Of a stretch of DNA of 20,345 bases, positions 1 through 14,849 are shown piece after piece. Position 1 is the first letter of the stretch, and every line of letters starts with the position of its first letter. The notes beneath the pieces are model-generated. The model was not told the DNA's origin and made no database searches. It saw only the letters and a list, made by a program, of their open reading frames with translations. Source of the stretch: Escherichia phage vB_EcoS-611R4; sequence record ON470587; one strand, written 5' to 3'. A program made the translations under genes and the position numbers.

Positions 1-15
1 TTTGTGGGGTCAGCA

Positions 16-480
16 ATGAACAGAGTAACCGCGATTATCTCCGCTCTGGTTATCTGCATCGTCGTCTGCCTGTCATGGGCTGTTAATCATTACCGTGATA
101 ACGCCATCGCCTACAAAGAACAGCGCGACAAAAATGCCAGAGAACTGAAGCTGGCGAACGCGGCAATTACTGACATGCAGATGCGTCAGCGTGATGTTGC
201 TGCGCTCGATGCAAAATACACGAAGGAGTTAGCTGATGCGAAAGCTGAAAATGATGCTCTGCGTGATGATGTTGCCGCTGGTCGTCGTCGGTTGCACATC
301 AAAGCAGTCTGTCAGTCAGTGCGTGAAGCCACCACCGCCTCCGGCGTGGATAATGCAGCCTCCCCCCGACTGGCAGACACCGCTGAACGGGATTATTTCA
401 CCCTCCGGGAACGACTGGTAATGATGCAGGCCCAACTTGAAGGTGCTCAGCAATACATAACCGAGCAGTGTTTAAAGTAA
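16..480 (+). CDS. Rz: Rz i-spanin (inner-membrane spanin subunit, lysis)
   Basis: ORF track 4..480; first ATG at 16 gives [23 protein letters not shown]... (N-terminal TM helix, then coiled-coil periplasmic domain). Near-identical to phage lambda Rz as I recall it. Contains the embedded +1-frame Rz1 ORF, the diagnostic spanin arrangement. The upstream endolysin gene lies outside the window. Confidence 0.9.
236..421 (+). CDS. Rz1: Rz1 o-spanin (outer-membrane lipoprotein), embedded in Rz in the +1 frame
   Basis: ORF 236..421 (61 aa) [24 protein letters not shown]...: signal peptide with lipobox VVGC, proline-rich mature part ([15 protein letters not shown]). Entirely nested in Rz, as in lambda. 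Confidence 0.85.
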
Positions 481-617
481 AATCTTAACTACAATATGAT
501 TCATTTTGATGATTGTTTCATAAGGAACAGTGAAGTAAGATCTAAGAGGAGTTAAATTTTATACAGTATAATCATAATATTGCAGCAAGGTGGTTATAAT
601 TGAAAGAATATTTAGAT

Positions 618-2075
618 ATGAATACATCTCATGTAAGAGTTGTTACTCATATGTGTGGGTTCCTGGTTTGGCTCTATAGTCTTTCAATGTTGCCACCAAT
701 GGTTGTAGCATTGTTTTATAAAGAAAAAAGCCTGTTCGTTTTCTTTATAACTTTCGTTATATTTTTTTGCATTGGTGGCGGAGCGTGGTATACAACTAAG
801 AAATCTGGCATTCAATTACGTACCCGTGATGGGTTTATTATAATTGTAATGTTTTGGATTTTGTTTTCTGTTATTAGTGCATTCCCTTTATGGATTGACT
901 CAGAACTTAATTTAACGTTCATTGATGCTCTGTTTGAAGGGGTTTCTGGAATAACAACAACAGGAGCAACTGTAATTGATGATGTTAGTTCATTACCTCG
1001 GGCATATTTGTACTATCGGTCACAGTTAAATTTTATAGGTGGTTTAGGAGTTATTGTTCTGGCGGTTGCTGTATTGCCATTATTGGGTATTGGTGGTGCA
1101 AAGCTTTATCAGTCAGAAATGCCGGGGCCATTTAAGGATGACAAACTCACTCCCCGCCTGGCCGATACGTCACGGACACTGTGGATAACTTATTCTTTAT
1201 TAGGTATTGCTTGTATTGTCTGTTATAGACTTGCAGGAATGCCTTTGTTTGATGCTATTTGTCACGGGATTTCCACAGTTTCGCTTGGTGGTTTCTCAAC
1301 TCATAGCGAGAGTATCGGATATTTTAATAACTATTTGGTTGAGCTGGTGGCTGGTTCTTTTTCCCTGCTATCGGCTTTCAACTTCACTCTTTGGTATATT
1401 GTTATTAGCAGGAAAACGATAAAACCTTTAATCAGAGATATTGAACTTCGTTTCTTTCTGTTAATAGCCTTAGGGGTGATCATTGTTACCTCTTTCCAGG
1501 TCTGGCATATAGGTATGTATGACTTGCATGGAAGTTTTATTCATTCGTTTTTTCTTGCCAGCTCCATGCTCACTGATAATGGTTTAGCTACGCAGGATTA
1601 TGCAAGTTGGCCCACGCACACGATAGTGTTTTTGCTGTTGTCAAGTTTCTTTGGGGGATGTATAGGTTCAACTTGTGGTGGAATTAAGTCACTTCGATTT
1701 CTTATACTTTTCAAACAAAGCAAACACGAGATAAATCAGCTTTCTCATCCCAGAGCGTTGTTGAGTGTAAATGTAGGAGGGAAGATAGTTACAGATCGTG
1801 TAATGAGGTCTGTATGGAGTTTCTTTTTTCTTTATACTCTCTTCACGGTGTTTTTTATACTGGTGTTAAATGGTATGGGATATGATTTTCTTACATCATT
1901 TGCAACAGTGGCTGCATGTATTAATAATATGGGATTAGGTTTTGGGGCTACTGCATCGTCATTCGGAGTGCTTAATGACATTGCAAAATGTTTAATGTGC
2001 ATAGCTATGATTCTTGGTCGCCTTGAAATTTATCCTGTTATTATATTGTTTTCAGGTTTTTTTTGGCGCTCCTAA
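618..2075 (+). CDS. trkG: TrkG/TrkH-family potassium uptake membrane protein (phage moron)
   Basis: ORF 600..2075; polytopic membrane protein with repeated pore-loop glycine motifs (SGITTTGATV, LGGFSTHSES, TCGGIKS, NMGLGFGA) typical of the TrkH/KtrB superfamily. From MNTSHVRVV... it matches my recollection of E. coli Rac-prophage TrkG (485 aa), which also sits directly after an Rz/Rz1 pair. Start uncertain: ATG 618 (homology) versus TTG 600, which has a better SD (AAGGTGG at 587..593). Gene is visibly AT-rich relative to its flanks. Confidence 0.85.
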   Translation: MNTSHVRVVTHMCGFLVWLYSLSMLPPMVVALFYKEKSLFVFFITFVIFFCIGGGAWYTTKKSGIQLRTRDGFIIIVMFWILFSVISAFPLWIDSELNLTFIDALFEGVSGITTTGATVIDDVSSLPRAYLYYRSQLNFIGGLGVIVLAVAVLPLLGIGGAKLYQSEMPGPFKDDKLTPRLADTSRTLWITYSLLGIACIVCYRLAGMPLFDAICHGISTVSLGGFSTHSESIGYFNNYLVELVAGSFSLLSAFNFTLWYIVISRKTIKPLIRDIELRFFLLIALGVIIVTSFQVWHIGMYDLHGSFIHSFFLASSMLTDNGLATQDYASWPTHTIVFLLLSSFFGGCIGSTCGGIKSLRFLILFKQSKHEINQLSHPRALLSVNVGGKIVTDRVMRSVWSFFFLYTLFTVFFILVLNGMGYDFLTSFATVAACINNMGLGFGATASSFGVLNDIAKCLMCIAMILGRLEIYPVIILFSGFFWRS

Positions 2076-2161
2076 TATATGGCTGATTTATAATTGTGAG
2101 TTTAATATTATGTTGACTCACTCATTGATCCAATACCTAACTTTACCAGCAACCCCTCCGT

Positions 2162-2195
2162 CCCCAGTAGCACTGGCTGCTGGGGTGCGTTTTAT
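2162..2195 (+). terminator. putative rho-independent terminator downstream of trkG
   Basis: Inverted repeat CCCCAGTAGC / GCTGCTGGGG (10-bp stem with one G.U, loop ACTG) at 2162..2185, followed by TGCG then TTTTATT. Fits moron architecture (own terminator). Confidence 0.4.
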
Positions 2196-2212
2196 TCATA
2201 AAGCAAGGCTGT

Positions 2213-3004
2213 ATGAGCGAGAAATTAAAGATAGTCTATCGCCCATTACAAGAATTGTCACCGTATGCGCACAACGCCAGGACGCACAGCCCTGAGCAGG
2301 TGGCACAACTGGTAGAAAGTATTAAGCAATTCGGCTGGACTAATCCGGTGCTGATTGACGAAAAGGGCGAAATTATTGCGGGTCACGGTCGTGTTATGGC
2401 GGCTGAAATGCTCAAAATGGATTCTGTTCCGGTCATTGTTCTGTCTGGCCTGACGGATGAGCAGAAAAAGGCGTACCGCCTGGCAGATAATCGCCTGCCG
2501 ATGAATGCTGGCTGGGATGAAGATCTGTTGCGGATGGAGCTGTCGGACCTAATCAATGCTGATTTTGATGTCTCCCTGACAGGCTTCATCCCGACAGAAA
2601 TTGATGAACTGTTGACGGATGTTTTGCCCGGTACAGGAAATGAGGAGGAGCCGTATACGACGAAAATTGATACGCCTGTTTATGAGCCGTCGGGCGGTAA
2701 ACCGGATATCAGTGAACTGTACGACGATACGAAAACTCAGGAGCTGATCAGCCGGATACGTTCGGCGTCCCTTGAGCCTGATATTGAGAAATTCCTCCTG
2801 TGTGCGGCAGAACGTCACACGGTGTTTAATTTCAGCAGAATTGCGGACTATTACGCTCACGCCCCCTCTGAAATTCAGTGTTTTTTCGAGGAGTCGGCGC
2901 TGGTGATCATTGATTATCAGCAGGCTATTGAAAATGGATTTGTCCGGATGACGCAGCGCATGGTGGAGATCATGCATGGTGGTGAGGAGGAGGAATATGC
3001 GTGA
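2213..3004 (+). CDS. ParB-like nuclease-domain (ParB/Srx fold) protein with uncharacterised C-terminal domain
   Basis: ORF 2213..3004 (263 aa). The N-terminal ~100 aa carry ParB N-domain hallmarks: YRPLQELSPYAHNARTH (box I-like) and GHGRVMAA (counterpart of the ParB GERRxRAA arginine-finger box), then DEQKKAYRLADN. The acidic C-terminal half has no recognisable motif. Same position as ynaK next to trkG in K-12 Rac, as far as I recall. Confidence 0.75.
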   Translation: MSEKLKIVYRPLQELSPYAHNARTHSPEQVAQLVESIKQFGWTNPVLIDEKGEIIAGHGRVMAAEMLKMDSVPVIVLSGLTDEQKKAYRLADNRLPMNAGWDEDLLRMELSDLINADFDVSLTGFIPTEIDELLTDVLPGTGNEEEPYTTKIDTPVYEPSGGKPDISELYDDTKTQELISRIRSASLEPDIEKFLLCAAERHTVFNFSRIADYYAHAPSEIQCFFEESALVIIDYQQAIENGFVRMTQRMVEIMHGGEEEEYA

Positions 3005-3929
3005 TGATTTTTGCGCCTTTATTCTGACTCACGGGCGACCGGACAAAGTTCTGACTTACCGGACGTTGCGTCGTGCTGGCTATACCGGGAAAATTTTTAT
3101 CGTTGTTGATGATGAAGATAAGACACGGAATCAGTACATGGCTGAATTTGGTGAACAGGTGCTGGTGTTTTCCAAAGCCGATATCGCCAGTCGTTTTGAC
3201 GAAGCCGATAATTTCTGTGACCGCCGCTCAATTTTTTACGCCCGTAATGCCTGTTTCGACCTGGCAAAACTGGTCGGGTGTAAATACTTCATTCAGCTCG
3301 ATGATGATTATCACGAGTTCCAGTTTCGGGTGGATCGCAACTATGACCAGGCCTATTTTCCGATAAGGAAACTGGATGCGATCCTTTCTGAAATGCTGGC
3401 GTACTACGAATCAATACCTGCTCTTTCCATCGCTATGTCGCAGGGCGGGGATTTTCTTGGTGACAATGGCGGCCATGCTTCGTGGGTGAAACGCAAGGCA
3501 ATGAACAGCTTTATCTGTTCGGTTGATCGACCGTTCTCATTCATGGGGCGCATTAACGAGGATGTGAATACGTACACGAATCTCGGTCGCTGTGGTGAAT
3601 TGTTTATGACGATCGGTGCTGTCCAGTTAGGGCAGAAACAGACGCAGAAAAACAGCGGCGGAATGACCGAGCTGTATCTGGATTCCGGAACCTACGTTAA
3701 AAGTTTTTACTCCGTCATGTATGCGCCGTCGTGCGTAAAAATCTCACTGATGGGTGCCAGCCATAAACGCATTCACCATCAGGTCACCTGGAACAACGCT
3801 GCAGTAAAAATCCTTCACGAAAAATACAGGAAGAAGACACCCTGCATATCAATGGGGGTGACAAATGATTCCGTATTCGAAAGTCGAGTCTCTGGCAGCG
3901 TGCCGGATGACTGCACAACAAATCGCTGA
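2997..3929 (+). CDS. putative GT-A-fold nucleotide-sugar glycosyltransferase-like protein (uncharacterised)
   Basis: ORF track 2976..3929; preferred start ATG 2997, preceded by AGGAGGAGG and overlapping the ParB-like stop. N-terminal secondary-structure pattern matches GT-A enzymes: beta1 FCAFILTHGR, helix, beta2 KIFIVVDDED, then a DxD-like motif YFIQLDDDY and a later acidic motif INEDVN. No TM segments, no SAM or P-loop motif. Function assigned by inference only. Confidence 0.55.
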   Translation: MRDDFCAFILTHGRPDKVLTYRTLRRAGYTGKIFIVVDDEDKTRNQYMAEFGEQVLVFSKADIASRFDEADNFCDRRSIFYARNACFDLAKLVGCKYFIQLDDDYHEFQFRVDRNYDQAYFPIRKLDAILSEMLAYYESIPALSIAMSQGGDFLGDNGGHASWVKRKAMNSFICSVDRPFSFMGRINEDVNTYTNLGRCGELFMTIGAVQLGQKQTQKNSGGMTELYLDSGTYVKSFYSVMYAPSCVKISLMGASHKRIHHQVTWNNAAVKILHEKYRKKTPCISMGVTNDSVFESRVSGSVPDDCTTNR

Positions 3930-4116
3930 CGTTCTGGATGTTGATCTGAACCGACTGAAAGAAAATCGGGAAGCAATGACAGATTTTTATGCGGCCATCC
4001 GTAAGGGCAGAGCGAAAGGTGAAGCCGAGTTACGAGCGGCATTGTTTAAGCTTGCCAGAAAAGGGGATGCCTTTGCTCTGCGCGAACTACTCAGGGTGGA
4101 TAAAAATCAGGACTAA
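3865..4116 (+). CDS. hypothetical small protein (83 aa), possibly DNA-binding, immediately upstream of the small terminase
   Basis: ORF 3865..4116; ATG preceded by GGGGGTGA; overlaps the 3' end of the GT-A-like gene by 65 nt in another frame; stop lies 3 nt before the small terminase ATG. Helical, basic C-terminal half (AAIRKGRAKGEAELRAALFKLARKGD). No family recognised. Confidence 0.5.
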   Translation: MIPYSKVESLAACRMTAQQIADVLDVDLNRLKENREAMTDFYAAIRKGRAKGEAELRAALFKLARKGDAFALRELLRVDKNQD

Positions 4117-4119
4117 CTG

Positions 4120-5214
4120 ATGAGCAGACCGGACTGGGGGGCGTTGCAGCAGGAGTATATTGCTGAATACACCCGCTCCGGTATATCTCCGGTGGCATGG
4201 TGTGAAGCAAGGGGACTGAATTACGCAACAGCCCGTCGTTACATCAAAAAAACTCCGAAAAATGCGCAGACAGAAATGTGCAAAACTGCGCAAAAAAGTG
4301 CGCAGAAAAAATCTGCGCAGACTGCACAAAAGCGGAACGAAAAATCTCAGGAAAAAAAGCCAGTATTCGATGCGGGCCTGAATGAGGGCGACGCGGAGGA
4401 ATTTTCGTTCTGTCCCGATGAATTCGGCATTTCTGACCAGCAGGCTAAGTTTGCGATGCTTGTTGCTCAGGGTAAAAAGCCGACAGAGGCGTACCGACTA
4501 GCCGGTTATGAGGGGCAAGGTGCGACAGCTAACAGCAACGCCAGTCGTATGCTTAGAAATGCCAGGGTTTTTCGCGCTATCAGCTACTTCCGCAATCAGT
4601 ACCAGAAACGCTATACCGCAGACCTGGATTTACTAGTGAGTCAGTTGATGGCTATTGTCCTGGCCGACCCCAATCAGCTTGCACAATTTCGCCGTGTTAA
4701 CTGCCGTTATTGCTGGGGCGAGAATCATCTCTACCAGTGGCGCGATATAGCAGAATTCGACAAGGCAGCGGCGCAGGCTTCCAGAGATGGCAAACCCGAA
4801 CCGGAATATGGAGGCCTCGGCTTTGTTGATAACGCCATACCCAATCCGGACTGCCCGAAGTGCTGCGGTGAGGGAACGGGACAGCTTTATATGGCTGATA
4901 CCACTCTGCTTGATGGGGATGCGCGGCAATTATATGCAGGGGCAAAATTCGGAAAATTCGGCGTTGAGATCCTGCTGGAGGATAAGGCTGCCGCCCGGCG
5001 TGAATTGTTGCGTTTGCTTTCTGCTGGCGGGGATTTATGTGCAGATAAGCGGCTACAGGAACTGGAAATTGAACGGCGCAGAATGGAAAACCAGAAGCTG
5101 CGCAAAGAGATCGAAACGGTGGAAGATAATGAACATCCCCAGCCTGTGGCGATCAATATTAATGTGGTTGATGCCAGAGTAAGGAGTGATGAAGATGATC
5201 TCTCCGACGCTTAA
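4120..5214 (+). CDS. terminase small subunit (HTH N-terminus, low-complexity linker, C-terminal oligomerisation region)
   Basis: ORF 4120..5214 (364 aa), directly upstream of and overlapping the large terminase. N-terminal HTH-like segment (GISPVAWCEARGLNYATARRYIKK), then an AQK-rich linker encoded by TGCGCA repeats, then a coiled-coil C-terminus. Assignment by position and architecture. Confidence 0.7.
   Translation: MSRPDWGALQQEYIAEYTRSGISPVAWCEARGLNYATARRYIKKTPKNAQTEMCKTAQKSAQKKSAQTAQKRNEKSQEKKPVFDAGLNEGDAEEFSFCPDEFGISDQQAKFAMLVAQGKKPTEAYRLAGYEGQGATANSNASRMLRNARVFRAISYFRNQYQKRYTADLDLLVSQLMAIVLADPNQLAQFRRVNCRYCWGENHLYQWRDIAEFDKAAAQASRDGKPEPEYGGLGFVDNAIPNPDCPKCCGEGTGQLYMADTTLLDGDARQLYAGAKFGKFGVEILLEDKAAARRELLRLLSAGGDLCADKRLQELEIERRRMENQKLRKEIETVEDNEHPQPVAININVVDARVRSDEDDLSDA
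4262..4335 (+). repeat. degenerate tandem repeats TG(C/T)(G/A)CA(G/A)A(A), about six copies at ~12-bp spacing, inside the small terminase gene; candidate pac / TerS recognition site
   Basis: Copies start at 4263, 4277, 4287, 4299, 4314 and 4323 (TGCGCAGA, TGTGCAAAA, TGCGCAAAA, TGCGCAGAAA, TGCGCAGA, TGCACAAAA). Alternatively just the DNA image of the AQK peptide repeats. Confidence 0.3.
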
Positions 5215-6496
5215 TGTGCCTCAGGCGCGATTTCTTTCAATGCCCCATAAATTTAAAGCCTATATTGCTGGTTTTGGCTCGGGCAAAACATGGGTTGGGT
5301 GTGGCGGCATATGCAAGGGGATTTGGGAGCATCCAGGTATAAATCAGGGATATTTTGCGCCAACGTATCCCCAAATTCGCGATATTTTTTACCCTACAGT
5401 GGAAGAAGTTGCTGCTGACTGGGGATTGAACGTAAAAATTAATGAGGGAAATAAAGAGGTTCACTTTTATTACGGACGCCAGTATCGGGGAACCACTATC
5501 TGCAGATCGATGGAGAAGCCACAAACGATCGTCGGTTTCAAAATTGGTAATGCGTTGGTGGATGAACTGGACATTTTGCCGAAGGAAAAAGCCAGAACGG
5601 CGTGGCGCAAGATAATTGCGCGTATGCGTTATAAGATTGATGGACTTCGCAACGGTATTGACGTTACAACCACGCCGGAAGGATTCAAATTTGTCTACGA
5701 GCAGTTTGTTAAAGCCGTGCGTGAAAAAACAGAGCTGGCCTCACTGTATGGTCTGGTGCAGGCATCTACTTTCGATAATGAAAAGAACCTGCCAGCAGAT
5801 TACATTCCTTCGCTTCTTGAATCATACCCTCCAGAGCTGATTAAAGCCTATCTGCGAGGACAGTTTACTAACCTGACAAGTGGTACTGTTTACCATCAGT
5901 TTGACCGGAAACTGAATAATTGCGAAGAAGTGGAGCAGCCAGGGGAGCCGATTTATATTGGGATGGATTTTAACGTTGGAAAGATGGCGGGAATCGTCCA
6001 TGTGCTGCGTTTGGGGCTTCCATGTGCGGTAACTGAAATCATCAATGCCTACGATACGCCGGATATGATCCGCATCATTAAAGAACGCTTCTGGCTGTAT
6101 GATGGGAATGATTACCGGAAAGTGAGGGAAATTTATATTTATCCAGATGCTTCCGGGGATTCCAGAAAATCAAGTAACGCAAGTACGACGGATATAGCCC
6201 AGCTTAAGCAGGCTGGTTTTAACGTTGTGGTGAACAGCTCGAACCCGCCAGTAAAAGATCGCGTTAACTCAATGAATGCAATGTTCTGCAATGCCAATGG
6301 TGAGCGTCGCTATAAAGTTAATGTGAAGCGTTGCCCGTTATATGCCGAATCTCTGGAGCAACAGGTCTGGGATGAGAAGGGGGAGCCTGATAAAAAATCT
6401 GGCAATGATCACCCGAATGATGCCGGAGGTTATTTCATCGTTAAGCAATTCCCTATTGTCAAACCGACCGGAAGAGTCACATCACTTCGGATTTAA
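5186..6496 (+). CDS. terminase large subunit (ATPase/nuclease)
   Basis: ORF 5186..6496 (436 aa). Walker A P-loop AGFGSGKTW near the N-terminus, Walker B-like hydrophobic stretch plus acidic pair (NALVDELD), acidic C-terminal nuclease-like region (YIYPDASGDS). Overlaps the end of the small terminase gene. Confidence 0.85.
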   Translation: MMKMISPTLNVPQARFLSMPHKFKAYIAGFGSGKTWVGCGGICKGIWEHPGINQGYFAPTYPQIRDIFYPTVEEVAADWGLNVKINEGNKEVHFYYGRQYRGTTICRSMEKPQTIVGFKIGNALVDELDILPKEKARTAWRKIIARMRYKIDGLRNGIDVTTTPEGFKFVYEQFVKAVREKTELASLYGLVQASTFDNEKNLPADYIPSLLESYPPELIKAYLRGQFTNLTSGTVYHQFDRKLNNCEEVEQPGEPIYIGMDFNVGKMAGIVHVLRLGLPCAVTEIINAYDTPDMIRIIKERFWLYDGNDYRKVREIYIYPDASGDSRKSSNASTTDIAQLKQAGFNVVVNSSNPPVKDRVNSMNAMFCNANGERRYKVNVKRCPLYAESLEQQVWDEKGEPDKKSGNDHPNDAGGYFIVKQFPIVKPTGRVTSLRI

Positions 6497-6498
6497 TT

Positions 6499-7905
6499 AT
6501 GGCTGATATATCAACACCCAACCTCGACTATAACGATATGCTGGAGGCGTGGGATATTAACGACGCACTGATGGGCGGTACGCTTGAAATGCGCAGGCAG
6601 GGGGAAAATTATCTCCCAAAATGGCCTAACGAAGATGAAGACGCTTATAAAAAACGCCTGTCTGTGGCTACGCTACTTCCTGTGTATGAAGAAAGCATCA
6701 AGCAAAATATTGGGCGCATATTTGCAGAGCCGACAGTATTGAGTGAGGAAACGCCGGCAAAAATCAGGGAATATGCAGAAAATATCGACATGGAGGGAAG
6801 CCGACTGGATGTGTGGGCGCAGCAATTTTTCAGCCTCGCATTTCAGTATGGTGTGGCACATGCGCTGGTGGACTATCCACGAACGGATATGAAAGAGATT
6901 CGGACAAAAGCCGATGAAAACGCGGCCGGTAGTCGTCCGTACGTTACGATGCTGAATCCACGCCAGGTTATTGGATGGAAATCGAAAGTTGAAAAAGGGA
7001 AAGTTGTTCTCACTGATTTGCGTATAAAAGAGGTCATCATTATTGATGGTGATGATTTCGGGCAGAAGAAGGTGGAGCAGATCCGCCATATTATGCCCCG
7101 TCGAGTTGAAATTTATCGACGTAGCGAAGGCACTAATGGCGAATCTGTCTGGACGCTTCATGAGTCATGGAATACCAGCCGTGATGATATTCCTCTGGTA
7201 ACACTGTACACGAAGAAAACAGGATTTATGCGTGGTACACCGCCATTGCTTAATCTTGGCTTGCTGAATATCAAGCACTGGCAAAGCCAGAGCGAGCAGG
7301 ACAATATTCTTCATGTTGCCCGCGTTCCATTGCTGGTGGCCTACGGGCTGGACAGGAATGAAGAACTGACGGTTGGTGCATCCACCGCTACGATTTTTGA
7401 GGACAGAACAAAAAATGGCCTCGAATATGTTGAACATAGTGGCGCAGCGATAGAATCTGGCGAAACATCACTTGAGAAGCTGGAAAATCAGATGCGTCAT
7501 GCCGGCGCTAAACTTCTGCGTGCTGAAAATACATCCACCAAATCTGTTGATCAGACTAATGAAGAGCGAATGCAGGAAAACTCGCCGCTTTATACAATGG
7601 CGAACTCCCTCGAAGATGCCCTCGATAATATTCTCCAGATAATGGCGGAATGGATCGGAGAGAGTTGCGGTGGCAATGTGGATGTGCGCACTGAACTGGA
7701 TGTATCTGCCCAGGTGTTTGACTCATCCTCCGCGCTGGCTGTTCAGTCATTGCGTCAGGGCGGTGATATACGTCAGATTGATGCGATTCGGGTGTTGCAG
7801 GCGTTGAAATTTATCGATCAGGATTCCCGTCCAGAGGAAGTGATCGATGAATTAAAAAATCAGAGTGTAATGCTGATGGAAATCAATGATGCAAACCGTG
7901 AATGA
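6499..7905 (+). CDS. portal protein
   Basis: ORF 6499..7905 (468 aa) immediately after the large terminase (ATG 2 nt after its stop), followed by a MuF-like gene: the canonical terminase-portal-MuF order of headful-packaging phages. Size and acidic C-terminus are consistent. Assignment mainly by position. Confidence 0.7.
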   Translation: MADISTPNLDYNDMLEAWDINDALMGGTLEMRRQGENYLPKWPNEDEDAYKKRLSVATLLPVYEESIKQNIGRIFAEPTVLSEETPAKIREYAENIDMEGSRLDVWAQQFFSLAFQYGVAHALVDYPRTDMKEIRTKADENAAGSRPYVTMLNPRQVIGWKSKVEKGKVVLTDLRIKEVIIIDGDDFGQKKVEQIRHIMPRRVEIYRRSEGTNGESVWTLHESWNTSRDDIPLVTLYTKKTGFMRGTPPLLNLGLLNIKHWQSQSEQDNILHVARVPLLVAYGLDRNEELTVGASTATIFEDRTKNGLEYVEHSGAAIESGETSLEKLENQMRHAGAKLLRAENTSTKSVDQTNEERMQENSPLYTMANSLEDALDNILQIMAEWIGESCGGNVDVRTELDVSAQVFDSSSALAVQSLRQGGDIRQIDAIRVLQALKFIDQDSRPEEVIDELKNQSVMLMEINDANRE

Positions 7906-9001
7906 ACGGCTGCGTGATGAATCAATTGCTCATGCAGTCTGGATATCCCGCTATAGCACTGGCGTGGCTGCCAGAATGGTGAAAATACTGAATGACAGCG
8001 ATGCGGAACTTACTGCTCGCCTGCTGATAGCACTGGACAGCCTCGATCCAGGTAGTTTTACCGTTAAGCGCCTGGAGTCACTTCTGGCGAGCGTCAGAGA
8101 GGTTAACCGCACTGCTATTAACAGCATGTTTACCAGTCTCTCCGGAGAGCTGAACGAGCTGGCAATTTATGAGGCTGGTTATCAGTTAAGTCTGTTTGAT
8201 TCTATGCTACCTGATTTTGTTGCTGATGTTCACCCTCTGGTTGGTATCTCTCCTGATGCACTTTATGCCGCTGCAATGGCGCGACCATTTCAGGGACGAC
8301 TGCTCAGTGAGTGGGCCTCAGATCTTGAGGCGGATCGGCTCAGACGCATAACAAATACAGTGCGTCAGGGTTTTTTGCTGGGGGATACCAATGAGCAGAT
8401 CGCAAGAAAAATTCGGGGACATGTCAGTAAGGGATTTCAGGATGGTGCATTGCAGATGAGCCGGGCTAATGCGGCCAGCATTGCAAAAACAGCGGTTGGA
8501 CATCTTGCTGCTACTGCCCGTGAGAGTTTTGCCAGCGCGAATAATGATTTGATTAAGGGTAAGCAATGGTTATCAACGCTTGATAATCGTACTACGCCAC
8601 AATGTCGAATCAGGGATCGCCTCAAATATACGCTGAATAATAAACCTGTAGGTCACAGCGTGCCTTATTTGCAGGGGCCGGGAAAAATTCATTTCTGCTG
8701 CCGCTCAACGGAAACGTTCATTCTGAAATCAGCGAAGGAACTGGGTATTGATGTTCGCGATATTTCCCCGGCTGAGCGGGCCAGCATGGATGGCGTGGTG
8801 GCCGGAGATACAACCTACAGGGAATGGTTTTTGCGTCAGCCTTACACCAGACAAAAACAGATTGTGGGGGAAACCCGAGCAAAGCTGATTCGGGATGGTG
8901 GTATGTCGCCAGATGAATTTTACACCGATAAAGGCGAATGGCTGACGCTGAAGCAGCTCCGTGAGCGTGATGCACAGGTATTCAGAAAAGCAGGGATTTA
9001 A
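7886..9001 (+). CDS. head morphogenesis protein (phage Mu F-like / SPP1 gp7-like minor head protein)
   Basis: ORF 7886..9001 (371 aa), overlapping the portal stop. Position after the portal and composition are typical of the MuF-like family. Not verified by search. Confidence 0.6.
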   Translation: MMQTVNERLRDESIAHAVWISRYSTGVAARMVKILNDSDAELTARLLIALDSLDPGSFTVKRLESLLASVREVNRTAINSMFTSLSGELNELAIYEAGYQLSLFDSMLPDFVADVHPLVGISPDALYAAAMARPFQGRLLSEWASDLEADRLRRITNTVRQGFLLGDTNEQIARKIRGHVSKGFQDGALQMSRANAASIAKTAVGHLAATARESFASANNDLIKGKQWLSTLDNRTTPQCRIRDRLKYTLNNKPVGHSVPYLQGPGKIHFCCRSTETFILKSAKELGIDVRDISPAERASMDGVVAGDTTYREWFLRQPYTRQKQIVGETRAKLIRDGGMSPDEFYTDKGEWLTLKQLRERDAQVFRKAGI

Positions 9002-9020
9002 ATAAATCATTTATTACAAC

Positions 9021-9047
9021 AGGCTACCTTCGGGTGGCCTTTTTTAT
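9021..9047 (+). terminator. intrinsic terminator-like hairpin (UUCG tetraloop) between head morphogenesis and scaffold genes
   Basis: AGGCTACC-TTCG-GGTGGCCT (8-bp stem with one G.U) followed by TTTTTTATT. Also an AATAAAT/ATTTATT inverted repeat at 9001..9015. Confidence 0.45.
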
Positions 9048-9105
9048 TGCTGCGATCCGGATGGTGAGCAGCGTAACTGTCGGAAGACTTAAACCAGGTA
9101 CTAAT

Positions 9106-9870
9106 ATGAAACTGAAAACGGTCGAGATTAACGGAAAACAATACGCAGAAATTGATACTGCTGGCCTGCCAGTTTATGTGCACGACGATGGTAAAGAAAT
9201 TGGCTTCGATGCACCGCTGGCGACAAAAAAAATTACAGAGCTTAATAGCGAGGCAAAAAATCATCGCCTGGCTAAAGAAGCTGCAGAGGAAAAACTGGCT
9301 AAGTTTGCCGCTATCGAAGACCCGAAGAAGGCGATCGAGGCACTGGAAATGCTGTCAAAAATCGACCAGAAAAAGCTGCTCGATGCGGGACAGGTTGACC
9401 AGGTTAAGGCAGAAATTACGAAAAATTTTCAGCAGCAATTAGATGAAGAAAAGCAACGCTCTCAGATGCTGGAGAAGCAGCTTTACGATTCTATGATTGG
9501 CGGTAGTTTTGCGGGTTCAAAATATATTGCCGATAAAATTGCGATCCCGGCAGATTTATTACAATCACGCTTCGGGCAGGCATTCAAAGTGGAAGAAGGG
9601 AGGATCGTTGCTTATGACGCTTCCGGCAACAAAATTTATTCCCGCGCGAAGCCTGGCGAACTGGCGCAGTTTGATGAGGCGCTGGAGTTCCTTGTCGAAA
9701 ATTACCCTCAGAAAGACTACATCCTGAAAGCCAGTGGCAACAATGGCGGCGGCTCCCGTCCGACACAGCATGATATTGGTCAGAAAACGATGAAACGCTC
9801 TGCTTTTGATGCACTGGATGTTGCAGGTAAGCAAAACGCATTGAAAGACGGTATCACAATCGTTGATTAA
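9106..9870 (+). CDS. scaffolding protein (putative)
   Basis: ORF track 9034..9870; the 9034 start lies inside the terminator hairpin, so ATG 9106 (MKLKTVEINGK..., AGGT 7 nt upstream) is preferred. Charged, helical coiled-coil-like protein located between MuF and the major capsid gene. Confidence 0.55.
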   Translation: MKLKTVEINGKQYAEIDTAGLPVYVHDDGKEIGFDAPLATKKITELNSEAKNHRLAKEAAEEKLAKFAAIEDPKKAIEALEMLSKIDQKKLLDAGQVDQVKAEITKNFQQQLDEEKQRSQMLEKQLYDSMIGGSFAGSKYIADKIAIPADLLQSRFGQAFKVEEGRIVAYDASGNKIYSRAKPGELAQFDEALEFLVENYPQKDYILKASGNNGGGSRPTQHDIGQKTMKRSAFDALDVAGKQNALKDGITIVD

Positions 9871-9968
9871 CACATTTGTCAGCTTCCGGATGGGAGCTGG
9901 TGTCAGGGCTGGATAGCTCATTACTCCATCTATTCACAATTACGCAAATTTTTAAGGAATATTTAATT

Positions 9969-11108
9969 ATGGCTGGAAATACCCTGACCGGGTTGATCCC
10001 GACTATTTATACCGCCCTGGATGTTGTATCCCGTGAGCAGGTAGGTTTTATCCCTGCGGTAGCAAAAAACGCAAAAGCTGACGCCGCAGCAAAAGATCAG
10101 ACGGTAACCGCGCCAGTTGCGCCTGAGGCGAAAACCGAAGATATCGTACCGGGGCCGTCAGCTCCGAATACCGGTGATCAAAATATTGGCACTGTTGATG
10201 TAAAAATTACTAAATCCAAAATGGCACCGGTTAAATGGAATGGTGAAGAACAACTGGCTCTTGGTCCTTCAGGGACTTACAACACCATTCTGGCTGATCA
10301 GTTCAAGCAGGCTTTTCGCGCCCTTGCAAACGAGGTTGAGGCTGATCTTGGTGCGTTGTATTTCGGTGCTTCCCGCGCCGTGGGAACCGCAGGGACAACG
10401 CCGTTTGGTGTTAAAGATGATCTTTCTGATGCTGCTCTGGCTCGTCAGGTTCTGGAGGATAACGGCGCACCGACAACCGATCTGCAGATGGTGCTTGGCT
10501 CCACTGCCATTGCTAATTTGCGCGGAAAACAGTCTGTATTGTTTAAAGTGAATGAATCCGGCACTGAACAGCTACTGCGTGAGGGCGTGTTGGGGCGTCT
10601 GGAGGGATTCAATATTCACAGTTCGGCAGGTGTGAAACGAGCGCCAAAGGTTGCTGCAACTGGTTATCTCGTGAATGGAGAGAAAAAAGAAGGCGATGTT
10701 CTTATTTCCATTGATACTGGTTCGGGGAGTATTTCTGCAGGTCAGATTGTTACGTTCGCTGGTGATCCGAATCAGTATGTTGTGGCAGCAGCGACCAGCA
10801 ATCTGATTACTCTTGCAGCGCCCGGACTGCGTCAGGATCTGGCCGATGATACTGCCATCACAGTTGTTGGGGCCTTTACTGCAAATATGGCGTTTGATCG
10901 CAACGCGTTTCTGCTGGCATCCCGTACTCCGGCAATGCCGGAAGGTGGCGATAATGCTGATGATGTAATGAATGTTACGGACCCGATTTCAGGGATTACG
11001 TTCCAGATTGCACTGTATCGTCAGTATCGCCAGGTGCGCTATGAAGTTGGACTGGCATGGGGTGTTTCATCAGTGAAGCCGGCACATGGTTGTCTGATTC
11101 TTGGTTAA
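9969..11108 (+). CDS. major capsid (coat) protein
   Basis: ORF track 9876..11108; preferred start ATG 9969 (MAGNTLTGLIPTIY..., AAGGA about 10 nt upstream). ~379 aa, follows the scaffold gene and is followed by a strong hairpin plus T-tract, the usual arrangement for a highly expressed coat gene. Confidence 0.7.
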   Translation: MAGNTLTGLIPTIYTALDVVSREQVGFIPAVAKNAKADAAAKDQTVTAPVAPEAKTEDIVPGPSAPNTGDQNIGTVDVKITKSKMAPVKWNGEEQLALGPSGTYNTILADQFKQAFRALANEVEADLGALYFGASRAVGTAGTTPFGVKDDLSDAALARQVLEDNGAPTTDLQMVLGSTAIANLRGKQSVLFKVNESGTEQLLREGVLGRLEGFNIHSSAGVKRAPKVAATGYLVNGEKKEGDVLISIDTGSGSISAGQIVTFAGDPNQYVVAAATSNLITLAAPGLRQDLADDTAITVVGAFTANMAFDRNAFLLASRTPAMPEGGDNADDVMNVTDPISGITFQIALYRQYRQVRYEVGLAWGVSSVKPAHGCLILG

Positions 11109-11117
11109 ACATTCAAA

Positions 11118-11140
11118 CGGGGCTTCGGCCCCATTTTTAA
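11118..11140 (+). terminator. intrinsic terminator / attenuator hairpin after the major capsid gene
   Basis: GGGGC-TTCG-GCCCC perfect stem with UUCG tetraloop at 11120..11133, followed by ATTTTTA. Confidence 0.5.
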
Positions 11141-11150
11141 TGGGGGGCAT

Positions 11151-11327
11151 ATGGCCGGATTAACTAAAGAGCAAAGAGCACAGCGTGAAGCCGCACAAAA
11201 AACGCAAATTGAGTTAGTGGTTATGGTGACCGATTATCAGATGTTTCCCGGCGCACCAACTATCGCTAATGTTCATCCTGATGAAGTTGACAACTGGAAG
11301 GCTATGGGCTGGAAAACTCAGGAGTAA
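11151..11327 (+). CDS. hypothetical small protein (58 aa), not in the supplied ORF track
   Basis: ATG 11151 preceded by GGGGGG (SD-like) about 5 nt upstream; open to TAA 11325..11327; translation MAGLTKEQRAQREAAQKTQIELVVMVTDYQMFPGAPTIANVHPDEVDNWKAMGWKTQE. Fills the gap between capsid and connector genes and its stop abuts the RBS of the next gene. Confidence 0.35.
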   Translation: MAGLTKEQRAQREAAQKTQIELVVMVTDYQMFPGAPTIANVHPDEVDNWKAMGWKTQE

Positions 11328-11330
11328 CAC

Positions 11331-11726
11331 ATGATCACTTACGTGACCTGTGATGACGTTGATAATGCGTTTGGGAACGCCTGGACGAGTGAGAACGCTA
11401 AAAATAAAGCTGTTTTAATGGCTAATGCCTGGCTTAATGGCTTCAACCTGAAAATTAACCCATCCCGTATTCCGGAAGAGGTAAAACTTGCGGGAGCATA
11501 TGCAGCCAGAATTGCCTCATTTGGTAAGTTGTTTCAGCAGAAAAATGATTCTGGCGTTGTTATCAGTAAAGCCGTGTCGGCTGACGGGGTCAGTGTATCG
11601 AAATCATTTTCTGAGTTGCCAGCAAACAGCACTGCATTGCTTGAACCCGATTTACAGCTTGCGATAGCACTGCTGAAACCGTACGGACTTAGTCGCTCAC
11701 AAGTCAGGGTTGTGAGGGGGGGATAA
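11331..11726 (+). CDS. head-tail connector / head completion protein (putative)
   Basis: ORF 11331..11726 (131 aa); AGGAG RBS; first of four tightly coupled ~130-aa genes between the capsid and major tail genes (ATGA/TAATG overlaps). Assignment by position. Confidence 0.5.
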   Translation: MITYVTCDDVDNAFGNAWTSENAKNKAVLMANAWLNGFNLKINPSRIPEEVKLAGAYAARIASFGKLFQQKNDSGVVISKAVSADGVSVSKSFSELPANSTALLEPDLQLAIALLKPYGLSRSQVRVVRGG

Positions 11727-12109
11727 TGGGGCTTCGTGAAGAGATTCAGTCAGAGGTTGCCGCTGCTTTTGATGAGGATTTAGCGGACGCCGTGAGTGAT
11801 TTTTCTGGTTATTACGTTACGCACCGGCACTGGGATCCTGTGACGGAAACTGGCGGCGAATCCACCGCAATCTATACCGGGCGAGGCGTGTTGACACGTT
11901 ATAAGCTGGGCAGAATTGATGGGATTAATATTTTGCATGGTGACCTTAAATTAACCGCTCTGGTATGCGAGGTTACGGATAAACCAGCTGTCGACCATAT
12001 TATTGAGATTTATGATCCTGTATCAAGGCAGTTACAACGATACGAGGTAATTACAGCAAGTTTAGATCCTTCCGCATCAGTTTACTCTATCCAGTTAAGG
12101 AGAGCGTAA
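11726..12109 (+). CDS. head-tail adaptor / head closure protein (putative)
   Basis: ORF 11726..12109 (127 aa); start overlaps the previous stop (TAATG). Assignment by position in the neck module. Confidence 0.45.
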   Translation: MGLREEIQSEVAAAFDEDLADAVSDFSGYYVTHRHWDPVTETGGESTAIYTGRGVLTRYKLGRIDGINILHGDLKLTALVCEVTDKPAVDHIIEIYDPVSRQLQRYEVITASLDPSASVYSIQLRRA

Positions 12110-12490
12110 ATGGCAAAGGCATGGGATATAGAACCGTCAATATTTGCCGGGATGATTGAGGAAGATGTAGGGCTGAAGATTCGCTACATCGCTATGCAGA
12201 TTCTTACTGCTATTGATATTGCTGCTCCGGTTGATACCGGACGTTTCAGAAATAACAACCTGGTGTCGTTACAGCATCCCGATTTTGGTATATCTGATAA
12301 CGTGGATCCGAACGGTACGATTGCTGTTCAGCGTGGGATCGGGGTTATTTCGAAAGCTGCAAATTACGGGGTTATTTATATCCAGAATAACCTTCCTTAT
12401 GCAGAGGCTCTTGAAAACGGTCATTCACAACAAGCGCCAACTGGCGTGTATGCCAACGCTTTTTATGGTGTTTTACAGGCTTACAAATGA
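12110..12490 (+). CDS. tail completion protein, HK97 gp10-like (putative)
   Basis: ORF 12110..12490 (126 aa). Contains APVDTGRFRNN, resembling the conserved DTG-R motif I associate with the HK97 gp10 family. Position in the neck module. Confidence 0.5.
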   Translation: MAKAWDIEPSIFAGMIEEDVGLKIRYIAMQILTAIDIAAPVDTGRFRNNNLVSLQHPDFGISDNVDPNGTIAVQRGIGVISKAANYGVIYIQNNLPYAEALENGHSQQAPTGVYANAFYGVLQAYK

Positions 12491-12879
12491 AGTTTACTGA
12501 AATCAGAAATACGGTTATTTCCAGAATGACGGCACAGACGATTATTGATGGAAAAGACGTATTGTATCCGAACGGGCCAACGTTCGATCCTTCCGGTAAG
12601 TTAATCTGGGCGCGGTTAAGTAATATTCCCGGGCAGGCTGGGGTTAATGAAATTGGCGCGGGGCCGGTTGTTTATCGCACGGGGATAATCATTATTCAGT
12701 TATTTGTCCCCGCAGGTTCTGGTTCAAAACTCATTACTGAGACAGCCGATAAATTGCGGGAACTGTTTGAGTTTCAGGATGACGATCGTCTCAGTTACCA
12801 GGCTGTTTCCTCAATAGCCGTCGGCGAAAAGAATGGCTGGTTCCAGCTTAATCTTCAAATTCCATATCGCGCGCTCTAG
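12487..12879 (+). CDS. tail terminator / tail tube joining protein (putative)
   Basis: ORF 12487..12879 (130 aa); start overlaps the previous stop (ATGA); immediately precedes the major tail protein gene. Confidence 0.45.
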   Translation: MKFTEIRNTVISRMTAQTIIDGKDVLYPNGPTFDPSGKLIWARLSNIPGQAGVNEIGAGPVVYRTGIIIIQLFVPAGSGSKLITETADKLRELFEFQDDDRLSYQAVSSIAVGEKNGWFQLNLQIPYRAL

Positions 12880-12905
12880 CGCAATTAATGACATAGGAGG
12901 CTTCT

Positions 12906-13868
12906 GTGAGTTCAGGTGCAAAGGTTATCTCGGCATTTATCCGGGAGACAGTTGCAGGCACTACGCCAGCAAGTGGTGACTGGAGTTTATTAAAACGCAC
13001 AAGCTGGGGAGTAAAACCCACCCAGAATAAAGGCGAAAATAATGAGATTGGTGGCTCCCGGATGGCTCAGGGGGCGACGCCTGGCACTGTGGATGTCGGC
13101 GGTGATGTTGGTACCAAATTTCGCTGGGGTCAACATGATGATTTTCTTGCATCCTGTTTCGGCGCGGAATGGTCAGGCGATTCTCTGACAATGGGGAATG
13201 AGCGAATAACATTTTCTCTGGCGACCTATGCGTCCGATGTCGGAATTGCCTCTGTCGTCAGAGGAGCGCAGGTTGGCTCATGGAAAATGCAGATCCCTAA
13301 CGACGGCGATATTACAGCGACCGTAACCTTTGCCGGGCTGGGCTGGGAAACAAAGGCCGATGATACGAATTTTATCAAAGGCAAACCTGTGGATAGTGCA
13401 GGAAAGTTACGCTATTCGTTTAAGGAGGTTTCAGCAGTAAGCCTGAATGGTGTTGCCGGAGGTAACGGTTTTTGTATCGACAGTTTTGATATTCAGTTCG
13501 ATAACAAACTCCAGACACAGCGTTGTATCGGGACTGGCTCGCCTTATGCAGGAGCAAATATTCCGACTACTTTTACACCGTCCGGTACGGTGACGCTTTC
13601 ATGGTCTAAAGCCGCGTGGGAAATCTGGAGTAAAACACTGACTGGAGAAACAGTTCCGTTCAGCTTCACGCTTTCGAATGGAGAGGGGGCATACACTTTC
13701 AGTTTCCCGAAGGTTCAGGTGTCAGGTGAATGGCCTGATGGGGGTAATACTGACATTATCCAGGTTCAATTGAGCATTACCGCAGCAGATGAAGCACCTA
13801 CGATAACCAGAAAAAAATGCTCCCCGACTGCCGTGATCGCAAAAGCCAGTGCTGATGCGATTAGTTGA
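12906..13868 (+). CDS. major tail (tube) protein
   Basis: ORF 12906..13868 (320 aa); GTG start with AGGAGG 6 nt upstream; Gly/Thr/Ser-rich beta-type composition; directly upstream of the chaperone pair and tape measure gene. Confidence 0.7.
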   Translation: MSSGAKVISAFIRETVAGTTPASGDWSLLKRTSWGVKPTQNKGENNEIGGSRMAQGATPGTVDVGGDVGTKFRWGQHDDFLASCFGAEWSGDSLTMGNERITFSLATYASDVGIASVVRGAQVGSWKMQIPNDGDITATVTFAGLGWETKADDTNFIKGKPVDSAGKLRYSFKEVSAVSLNGVAGGNGFCIDSFDIQFDNKLQTQRCIGTGSPYAGANIPTTFTPSGTVTLSWSKAAWEIWSKTLTGETVPFSFTLSNGEGAYTFSFPKVQVSGEWPDGGNTDIIQVQLSITAADEAPTITRKKCSPTAVIAKASADAIS

Positions 13869-13880
13869 TTTTCCGTTATT

Positions 13881-13907
13881 CCCCCTGTGGTACTGCACTA
13901 CAGGGGG
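13881..13907 (+). promoter_or_regulatory. stable stem-loop after the major tail gene (possible attenuator / RNA stability element)
   Basis: CCCCCTGT ... ACAGGGGG perfect 8-bp inverted repeat with 11-nt loop; no T-tract follows. Confidence 0.3.
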
Positions 13908-13916
13908 ACGCATTGA

Positions 13917-14378
13917 ATGAGGTTATGGATGTTTATTCTTAATCAGAAAATTATCATCGGTGGAGAACGCTGGTTTACGCCAATGAAGGACTTAAAACCT
14001 GTAGACGGGTTAAAACTGTTGGTGGCAAGCAGCGATAACGATCAGTATCGCTCCCGTAATGCATTAATCCGTCGTCACATTGAGAAAATGGATGCCAGTT
14101 TGCACGTCGGAACGAAGGAGTTTGATATTTCAAAGGTTTCCGAGGTAGATTCTGTTGATGATTTACTCATTGATAATGCTGCTCGTTATCTGCTGAAAGA
14201 CTGGAAAGGGGTTGGTGAACTGGTTAATGGTGCTGAGGTTGCACTGGAATATACGCCAGAACGAGGGATCGCGCTGCTTAAGCAGAATCCAGAGTTGTAC
14301 TGGCAGATCCTTGCAGAAGCAGCCAGCATCGCCCAGGGTAAAGAGCAGCAGAAGCAGGATACGATAAAAAAGCCATAG
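13917..14378 (+). CDS. tail assembly chaperone (lambda gpG analogue)
   Basis: ORF 13917..14378 (153 aa), acidic, located between the major tail and tape measure genes. Its last codons contain the slippery heptamer A_AAA_AAG, and a downstream -1-frame ORF is open from 14342. Alternative start ATG 13929. Confidence 0.7.
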   Translation: MRLWMFILNQKIIIGGERWFTPMKDLKPVDGLKLLVASSDNDQYRSRNALIRRHIEKMDASLHVGTKEFDISKVSEVDSVDDLLIDNAARYLLKDWKGVGELVNGAEVALEYTPERGIALLKQNPELYWQILAEAASIAQGKEQQKQDTIKKP

Positions 14379-14686
14379 CCGCCCAGCGGTGGTTATCGGA
14401 GTTCGGGGGAGAAAGGGGGGAAAAGGCAAGATGGAAGCGAGAAAAACTCAGGTTGCCACCGATACCGGAACCAGAAATAGACCCGGTGCTTAAGGAATTG
14501 TTGTACGCCTATTCGGTAATATCCCGTGCCCGACGTTATGCTGGAATGACCGGGGTGCCTTTGCCTTTATCTCTGACAGAGATAAATGAATATTTAGCCA
14601 CTCATCCGGTATTGATTGAGCGCGATGAGTTTGAAGCAGTGATCTTTGCACTGGATGACCAGTATTTTCAGGATCAGTGTGTGTAG
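13917..14686 (+). CDS. tail assembly chaperone frameshift fusion product (lambda gpGT analogue; -1 shift at 14366..14372)
   Basis: The -1 frame relative to the G-like ORF is open from 14342 to the stop at 14684..14686 (ORF track shows its distal part, 14453..14686). The overlap with the G-like frame (14342..14378) contains A_AAA_AAG. Predicted junction ...DTIKK / AIAAQRWLSEFGGERGEKARWKREKLRLPPIPEPEID... Confidence 0.6.
14366..14372 (+). other. programmed -1 ribosomal frameshift slippery heptamer A_AAA_AAG
   Basis: In the G-like zero frame the codons are AAA(14367..14369) AAG(14370..14372), preceded by A at 14366; the same heptamer as the E. coli dnaX frameshift site. A G-rich tract (GGGGGAGAAAGGGGGG, 14404..14420) lies 32 nt downstream. 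Confidence 0.6.
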
Positions 14687-14809
14687 TTGTTAATTACGTA
14701 CACTCTGTTACAGAGATGTGATGGTGTCTTTAATTAAATCGATGATGCTCCTGGAGAAAAGCATTGCGTGGCCTCGTAATCGCTATATCTACTATTATGT
14801 CGCCTGAAA

Positions 14810-14830
14810 CCCACTTCGGTGGGCTTTTTG
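14810..14830 (+). terminator. small intrinsic terminator-like hairpin upstream of the tape measure gene
   Basis: CCCAC-TTCG-GTGGG (5-bp GC-rich stem, UUCG tetraloop) followed by CTTTTTGTTG; sits in a ~160-nt non-coding spacer (14687..14849). Confidence 0.35.
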
Positions 14831-14849
14831 TTGTCTGGAGTTTTAATAA

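Follow-up and report, generated by a model that had tools for sequence, protein, structure and literature searches.

Introduction

The closest described relative of the locus examined here is trkG of the Rac prophage in Escherichia coli K-12. Tanudjaja et al. (PMC9898762) described trkG as a foreign gene in Rac, with a GC content of 38% compared with 53% for trkH. TrkG takes up K+ in a Na+-dependent manner and also takes up Na+, residue D327 has been implicated in the Na+ dependence, and TrkA is a partner common to TrkG and TrkH (PMC9898762). The gene is partially repressed by H-NS and StpA, and its transcript is increased in hns and hns stpA mutants (PMC9898762). Over-expression of SlyA was reported to increase trkG 3.8-fold, and in a survey of 154 genomes trkG was among the best conserved of the Rac genes. 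Here, we analysed a stretch of 20,345 nucleotides from Escherichia phage vB_EcoS-611R4 (sequence record ON470587), which is referred to at its full length as the window. With high confidence, positions 481..2197 of the window are the trkG cassette of an E. coli Rac-type lambdoid prophage, and they carry a foreign, AT-rich gene of the TrkH family. On one side of the cassette are the lysis genes (S-R-Rz/Rz1), and on the other the genes for packaging.

The TrkH proteins of E. coli and Vibrio parahaemolyticus (structures 3PJZ and 4J9U) have the family and the architecture in common with TrkG. In contrast to TrkH, TrkG requires Na+ for K+ uptake and also carries Na+. The trkH gene belongs to the core genome, has 53% GC and is without H-NS control.

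Results

Identity of the gene

The elements of the cassette are as follows.

481..599, plus strand: AT-rich trkG promoter and leader, about 25% GC, identical to K-12 and inside the fragment 106..617 used in a K-12 luciferase (lux) fusion
567..572, plus strand: first TATAAT, the best −10 candidate; an exact and conserved hexamer, with a predicted transcription start at about 578-581
587..593, plus strand: Shine-Dalgarno (SD) sequence AAGGTGG, 6 nt upstream of TTG 600
595..600, plus strand: second TATAAT, between the SD sequence and the start codon, overlapping the T of TTG 600
600..2075, plus strand: coding region of trkG, with 491 codons if read from TTG 600 and 485 if read from ATG 618, the RefSeq start; Na+-dependent K+ transporter subunit of the Trk system
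2076..2158, plus strand: 3' untranslated region, AT-rich over its first ~50 nt, with a weak AT-rich hairpin at 2096..2121
2159..2189 and 2190..2197, plus strand: intrinsic-terminator-like hairpin (13 pairs, 4-nt loop) and U-tract

The window TrkG was identical to K-12 TrkG (b1363) at 485 of 485 amino acids, D327 included. It matched the Pfam family PF02386 (TrkH) with 484 bits against a cut-off of 27 (5e-145; profile positions 3-500 of 502) and TIGR00933 with 415 bits against a cut-off of 331. The assignment to the TrkG/TrkH family, which the original prediction had made from the DNA letters and their translations, was borne out by these matches and by the identity to the K-12 protein. TrkH orthologue status was considered and rejected, as the NCBIfam TrkH equivalog NF008020 was matched with 450 bits, below its cut-off of 866; the protein is the paralogue, TrkG. 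Residues 7-485 aligned full-length to the TrkH structures 3PJZ and 4J9U (E = 1.2e-120), and the selectivity-filter glycines of the four pore-forming repeats would be present by implication, from the identity to functional K-12 TrkG. The 491-position profile of PHROG 1916 was matched over its whole length. None of the PADLOC defence models was matched by TrkG.

Match to K-12 Rac

Over positions 36..2466, the window matched K-12 Rac at 99.7% identity, without gaps and with seven nucleotide differences. The 5' spacer (481..617) showed zero differences from K-12, and the 3' spacer showed one, at 2154. The gene order in K-12 MG1655 Rac is the same (rzpR/rzoR-trkG-ynaK), and the proposed correspondence to the Rac-prophage trkG arrangement was confirmed by both the order and the identity. 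The protein, the 5' spacer, the neighbours (Rz/Rz1 upstream, ynaK downstream) and the prophage family are all those of K-12 trkG. What has been established in K-12 for the promoter, for H-NS and Na+ dependence, and for the start codon and termination applies directly to this locus.

Past position 2466, the homology to K-12 jumps to 14027 and continues over 14027..15784 at 98.5% identity. The jump corresponds to an 11.6-kb deletion in K-12 (window 2467..14026), by which ynaK (2466) was fused to ydaY (14027); the window prophage thus keeps regions that K-12 deleted. Homology is lost past 15784, inside the tape-measure gene. K-12 Rac is without Q, holin and lysozyme, and its Rz is a pseudogene.

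Positions 1..3000 were 100% identical to many E. coli chromosomes, in which the genes are annotated rrrD, rzpD/rzoD, trkG and ynaK, and also to GenBank records labelled as phage. The source paper of these vB_EcoS records shows that they were predicted by PHASTER as prophage regions in the genomes of clinical isolates; they are not isolated virions. One sister record, 100% identical over 1..3000, contains ttcA-intR-ydaQ-ralR-recT-recE-racC-kil-racR, replication genes, Q, two tRNAs, S, R, Rz, trkG and the late genes, and is a gene-complete Rac at ttcA. Membership of the Rac family is shown by the gene order, the near-identity to K-12 Rac DNA and the ttcA context, the latter seen in the sister record since the attachment site lies outside the window.

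Base composition and foreign origin

The island at 481..2212 (1732 nt) had a GC content of 37.4%, compared with 47.8 ± 2.4% (minimum 42.3) in equal-sized segments of 2213..20345. At 60-nt resolution, the drop in GC started at the Rz stop codon, with an edge within ~40 nt, and the recovery occurred at about 2120-2160. The compositional island therefore has sharp 5' and 3' edges and extends over 481..~2130. The trkG gene (618..2075) showed 38.1% GC, with 32.3% GC at third codon positions (GC3), and the 5' spacer (481..617) 25.5% GC, whereas the other late genes ranged over 44-59% GC and 35-67% GC3. Codon usage in trkG differed from that of the phage genes for ATA (0.37 compared with 0.14), CTG (0.17 compared with 0.41) and CCG (0.08 compared with 0.42). 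The higher AT content of trkG relative to its Rz and ParB-like flanks had been judged by eye, and the windowed GC, GC3 and codon usage all agree with that judgement.

It is scarcely credible that the low GC has nothing to do with a foreign origin and stems from the amino-acid composition of a polytopic membrane protein or from a drift towards AT once the gene had been captured. Phe, Ile and Leu, which are abundant in membrane proteins, have AT-rich codons, and other TrkG-clade genes have 42-46% GC, only mildly under that of their flanks. However, the GC3 of 32% lies under the range of the other late genes and the synonymous codon choice is strongly different. The non-coding spacer is AT-rich too, E. 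coli trkH encodes the same fold with 53% GC, and the composition switches within ~40 nt at the Rz stop codon. By GC3 and the choice of synonymous codons, a non-foreign explanation is already largely refuted.

Promoter activity

In a K-12 lux fusion, luciferase is driven by a fragment that corresponds, by its primers, to positions 106..617 of the window (Tanudjaja et al., PMC9898762). Genomic systematic evolution of ligands by exponential enrichment (SELEX) identified a constitutive sigma-70 promoter, bound by the RNA polymerase holoenzyme, at trkG, one of very few in Rac, and its authors concluded that trkG entered the prophage along with its promoter (PMC5811629). Together with the expression of K-12 trkG despite the loss of Q and pR', these results map onto identical sequence in the window. 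Transcription independent of the late operon, as originally proposed, is thus documented in K-12.

A gene without a relevant promoter of its own, carried as a passenger of the late operon and made only by Q-antiterminated transcription from pR' in lytic growth, is very improbable. Such a passenger would fit the location of trkG, which is on the same strand as the late genes and lies downstream of Q, with Rz before it and terminase after it, and the lack of a good −35 at either TATAAT of the spacer. It does not fit K-12, in which Rac is without Q, pR', holin and lysozyme and the identical trkG is still transcribed at approximately the trkH level, supports K+ uptake and is active in the reporter; read-through from the late promoter therefore cannot explain the expression. 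Late read-through probably occurs too, but it cannot be the sole route.

The two TATAAT hexamers of the spacer were confirmed at 567..572 and 595..600. The first is conserved as GTATAAT (566..572) in E. albertii and E. fergusonii despite diverged surroundings. Two or more TATAAT were found in 4.5% of mononucleotide shuffles of the spacer, and the pair is thus only mildly unexpected. Across 1..3000, there were 5 promoter-like sites compared with 6.6 ± 2.2 in shuffles, and 4 terminator-like sites compared with 2.8 ± 1.5. As these counts were not above those of the shuffles, the case rests on the quality of the individual sites and on the published experiments. An Rfam scan of 1..3000 gave no match at E ≤ 1, and the supplements of the Cappable-seq and SMRT-Cappable-seq papers held no entry for the trkG locus.

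Start codon and position of the promoter

Tetracycline ribosome profiling in K-12 identified a new trkG start, a TTG at −18 from the ATG (window position 600), giving the N-terminus MKEYLDMNTSH. The upstream region of the window was compared with those of the E. albertii (84% nucleotide identity), E. fergusonii (72%) and Citrobacter copies. A G-rich SD sequence, followed after 5-6 nt by TTG, was conserved in the four taxa, and TTG 600..602 was invariant. In Citrobacter, CTG replaces ATG 618, and many TrkG-clade proteins start six codons upstream of the position of the E. coli ATG, without a methionine there. The main start is thus probably TTG 600 (491 amino acids), and the RefSeq start at ATG 618 is probably six codons short. 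The promoter and the SD sequence appear to have travelled with trkG.

Two aspects of the original prediction were revised by this start. The spacer, which had been given as 137 bp, is as AT-rich as stated, but probably measures 119 nt. Similarly, of the two hexamers proposed to form its promoter, the first stands as a −10 candidate, while the second overlaps TTG 600 and would be part of the interval between the SD sequence and the start codon, which makes it an unlikely −10.

A working promoter other than 567..572 is unlikely, but has to be weighed for two sites. The first is 595..600, which would give a near-leaderless transcript with a start at ATG 618. This hexamer is perfect and has been retained in both E. 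albertii and E. fergusonii, and ATG 618 is the annotated RefSeq start. However, the ribosome-profiling start TTG 600 would be upstream of any transcript begun from this hexamer, and its conservation is equally explained by its place between the conserved SD sequence and the conserved TTG. The second is the pair at 471..500. It runs over the stop codon of Rz and would give a leader of ~100 nt. It was the sole combination of −35 and −10 accepted by the consensus scan in the region, with 9 of 12 matches, but both of its elements differ in E. albertii and are missing from E. fergusonii. The best −10 candidate is the TATAAT at 567..572.

Termination

The hairpin at 2159..2189 had a folding energy of −22.5 kcal/mol (z = −5.3 compared with shuffles) and was also picked by the terminator scan. 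It is followed directly on its 3' side by GUUUUAUUC. In K-12 DirectRNA-seq (PMC7815308), coverage at site 1425351(+), which corresponds to window position 2187, fell from 137 to 34 reads without bicyclomycin, a four-fold fall. With bicyclomycin, coverage at the same site fell from 301 to 176 reads, a 1.7-fold fall (PMC7815308). The falls in coverage indicate that trkG transcripts largely stop there, with a contribution from Rho.

The origin of this element was addressed through its composition and its neighbours. As the GC content recovers by ~2120-2160, the hairpin, with 52-53% GC, falls outside the AT-rich segment. Homology to the E. albertii copy fades ~5-35 nt past the trkG stop codon, and that copy has no such hairpin. 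The 3' spacer was contiguous with trkG to at least position 2232 in 79 of 80 IMG/VR loci. The backbone-like GC content and the end of E. albertii homology just past the stop codon make import of the terminator doubtful; it looks like phage backbone and is probably not part of the imported DNA. The hairpin and T-tract that had been predicted 3' of trkG are thus present and strong (2159..2197), but probably did not arrive with the gene.

A reading in which the hairpin is a pre-existing backbone element and Rho, by its action on the 3' untranslated region, is what mainly ends trkG transcripts is possible, although not favoured. It is in keeping with the backbone-like composition of the hairpin region, with the E. 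albertii copy, which has DNA in common with the window only to just past the stop codon, and with K-12, where the site is listed as a Rho-termination region and Rho inhibition raises read-through. However, the structure is that of a canonical intrinsic terminator, with a 4-nt loop and an immediate U-tract, the 1.7-fold fall persists with Rho inhibited, and the hairpin stays with trkG in 79 of the 80 loci regardless of the downstream DNA. Origin and function of the hairpin are separate questions, and a hairpin derived from the backbone can still terminate trkG.

Flanking genes and state of the prophage

The genes on either side of the cassette are as follows.

4..480, plus strand: Rz, inner-membrane spanin and last gene of the lysis cassette (Pfam Phage_lysis, 6e-53; 52.4% GC)
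236..421, plus strand: Rz1, outer-membrane lipoprotein spanin in the +1 frame of Rz, with lipobox LVVVGC and a proline-rich body
2213..3004, plus strand: full-length ynaK-type gene with a ParB/Srx domain, 263 amino acids (Pfam ParB_N, PHROG 620; 49.7% GC)
2976..3929: TAGT-type glycosyltransferase (Pfam TAGT, 8e-35; PHROG annotation beta-glucosyl-HMC-alpha-glucosyltransferase)

Lambda-type Rz genes matched the window up to ~470 and then diverged, and those phages are without the ynaK module. Rz1 is annotated rzoD by RefSeq in the matching genomes. The ParB/Srx gene is the first backbone gene past the trkG insert, and in K-12, ynaK is reduced to the first 254 nt of this gene. When the ParB-like protein was used as a tblastn query, the only relatives outside this prophage were distant ones (≤44% identity full length), too distant to define the backbone junction. 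The glycosyltransferase is of the TET-associated type and overlaps the ParB/Srx gene, the pair lying directly upstream of terminase. The two genes may form a DNA-modification or anti-restriction module. The same pair was also observed in Lactobacillus phages. Genes for the small and large terminase, the portal, the head, the tail and the tail tip lie downstream of the glycosyltransferase. An open reading frame of 83 amino acids (3865..4116), which comes shortly before the small-terminase gene (4120..5214), matched the middle of a small-terminase PHROG profile (positions 145-218 of 319); it may be a separate small gene or the split N-terminal part of the terminase.

All of the late genes are present in the window. 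However, an in-frame TAG at 17346..17348 splits the tape-measure gene (14850..18083) into pieces of 832 and 189 amino acids in the same frame. Another Rac copy has CAG at this codon, and in IMG/VR, CAG was present in 33 contigs and TAG in one. Because of the amber codon, this prophage copy is probably tail-defective, and the earlier impression of an intact prophage holds for its gene content but not for its tape measure; the copy is gene-complete but probably not intact. Uninterrupted Rac relatives with trkG do exist, and gene-complete ones are common.

Distribution and relatives

The trkG island was present in 1551 of 5426 complete E. coli genomes, with at least 99% identity in 1516 records. 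Fifteen of the 1558 places that matched the island were in records labelled as plasmids. Rz and trkG were contiguous in 80 of 80 IMG/VR loci, while the end of the downstream homology varied widely from locus to locus, a sign of independent deletions. trkG is retained as the prophage around it decays.

In E. albertii NBRC 107761 (extract 5600..9100), a TrkG with 93% identity is encoded between yebY and pphA, outside any recognisable prophage. Its neighbours, all of low GC, are part of a holin gene, the final ~36 nt of Rz and a gene for an NleF-like effector, and the locus looks like a decayed prophage remnant of which only the cargo has survived. Shigella flexneri SFBU0723 (extract 6001..7423) has a Rac-type prophage in which the ynaK, TAGT and terminase genes are complete and trkG is frameshifted and degraded, a pattern of decay that is the opposite of that in K-12.

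The next relatives were found in E. fergusonii (79% identity), Citrobacter (77%), Pectobacterium (75%), Buttiauxella (68%), and Serratia and Xenorhabdus (~62-66%), with many further TrkG-clade genes of Enterobacterales at 60-75% identity. These chromosomal genes belong to the same subfamily and are nearer to TrkG than to TrkH, and the E. fergusonii gene keeps the GTATAAT, SD and TTG elements upstream. In contrast to trkG, they have a higher GC content (42-51%), and the three contexts examined were all non-prophage. Not one of them is similar enough to have been the donor. None of the relatives examined outside E. coli, E. ruysiae and E. albertii was in a phage.

Discussion

The moron concept arose from comparisons of HK97 and HK022, and lambda bor and lom are known examples. 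In common with the morons of lambdoid phages, trkG is one gene, foreign in its composition, that lies between two modules of the late operon, with its own promoter, a terminator, expression from the repressed prophage and a benefit to the host. It differs in that the edges of morons are defined by sister phages without the insert, none of which was found for trkG, and in that its terminator may be derived from the backbone. The promoter-gene-terminator moron of the original prediction was accordingly supported in its composition, its promoter and its terminator as such, but not by an empty site, and import of the terminator is doubtful. The description of trkG as an AT-rich foreign gene with its own promoter is correct, but was already known from K-12.

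Several points weigh against this interpretation of the cassette. A good −35 is lacking for both TATAAT hexamers, and neither was called by the consensus scan, which preferred TTTAAA-18-TATGAT at 471..500. No mapped trkG transcription start was found in the literature searched, and it is from the sequence that we infer the −10 at 567..572. The published lacZ confirmation of the TTG start was inconclusive. The published entry for site 1425351(+) describes a Rho-termination region, with a score of 2.36 that is modest, and does not give a mapped intrinsic 3' end (PMC7815308). An empty site, with Rz next to ynaK and no trkG, was sought with an artificial junction query by megablast on 5426 E. coli genomes and by blastn on 50,697 phage records, and no place was covered to 80% or more; as no empty site was found, we infer the insertion event from composition alone. 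Finally, the scan of the genome collection and a large protein search revealed no donor, with identities of at most 79% outside E. coli, E. ruysiae and E. albertii.

In a lysogen, the host sigma-70 RNA polymerase would start transcription in the AT-rich spacer, as has been shown for the identical K-12 sequence. The −10 would be the TATAAT at 567..572, giving a short leader with the SD sequence AAGGTGG (587..593), from which translation would begin at TTG 600 and possibly at ATG 618 too. By analogy with K-12, H-NS and StpA would damp this transcription without abolishing it. Most transcripts would be expected to end at 2159..2197, with Rho helping somewhat, and this would prevent the constitutive transcript from extending into ynaK, the terminase genes and those for structural proteins. 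The TrkG made in this way would support Na+-dependent K+ uptake and could replace TrkH, as shown in K-12, with the host-encoded TrkA and SapD as its likely partners. The partnership with TrkA and SapD is established for the Trk system.

During lytic growth, Q-modified polymerase from the late promoter would have to transcribe past trkG and its terminator before it arrives at the terminase genes, and TrkG would consequently also be made late in infection. That TrkG serves the phage in lytic growth, beyond its benefit to the lysogen, is improbable. If true, a Na+-coupled K+ transporter made in a late burst could replenish the K+ that the cell loses at infection, could alter the membrane potential and hence the timing of holin triggering, or could disadvantage superinfecting phages.

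Rac trkG is a standard example of a prophage-borne, low-GC gene that is damped by H-NS and has been adopted by the host, and the present locus thus carries little weight as a discovery. The analysis refines the known picture with respect to the start codon, the relevant hexamer, where the terminator came from and the tape-measure amber codon. For annotation, its value lies in the likely start at TTG 600 (491 amino acids), which is not used by RefSeq. The common, gene-complete Rac relatives that carry trkG would be suited to asking whether TrkG helps the phage itself.

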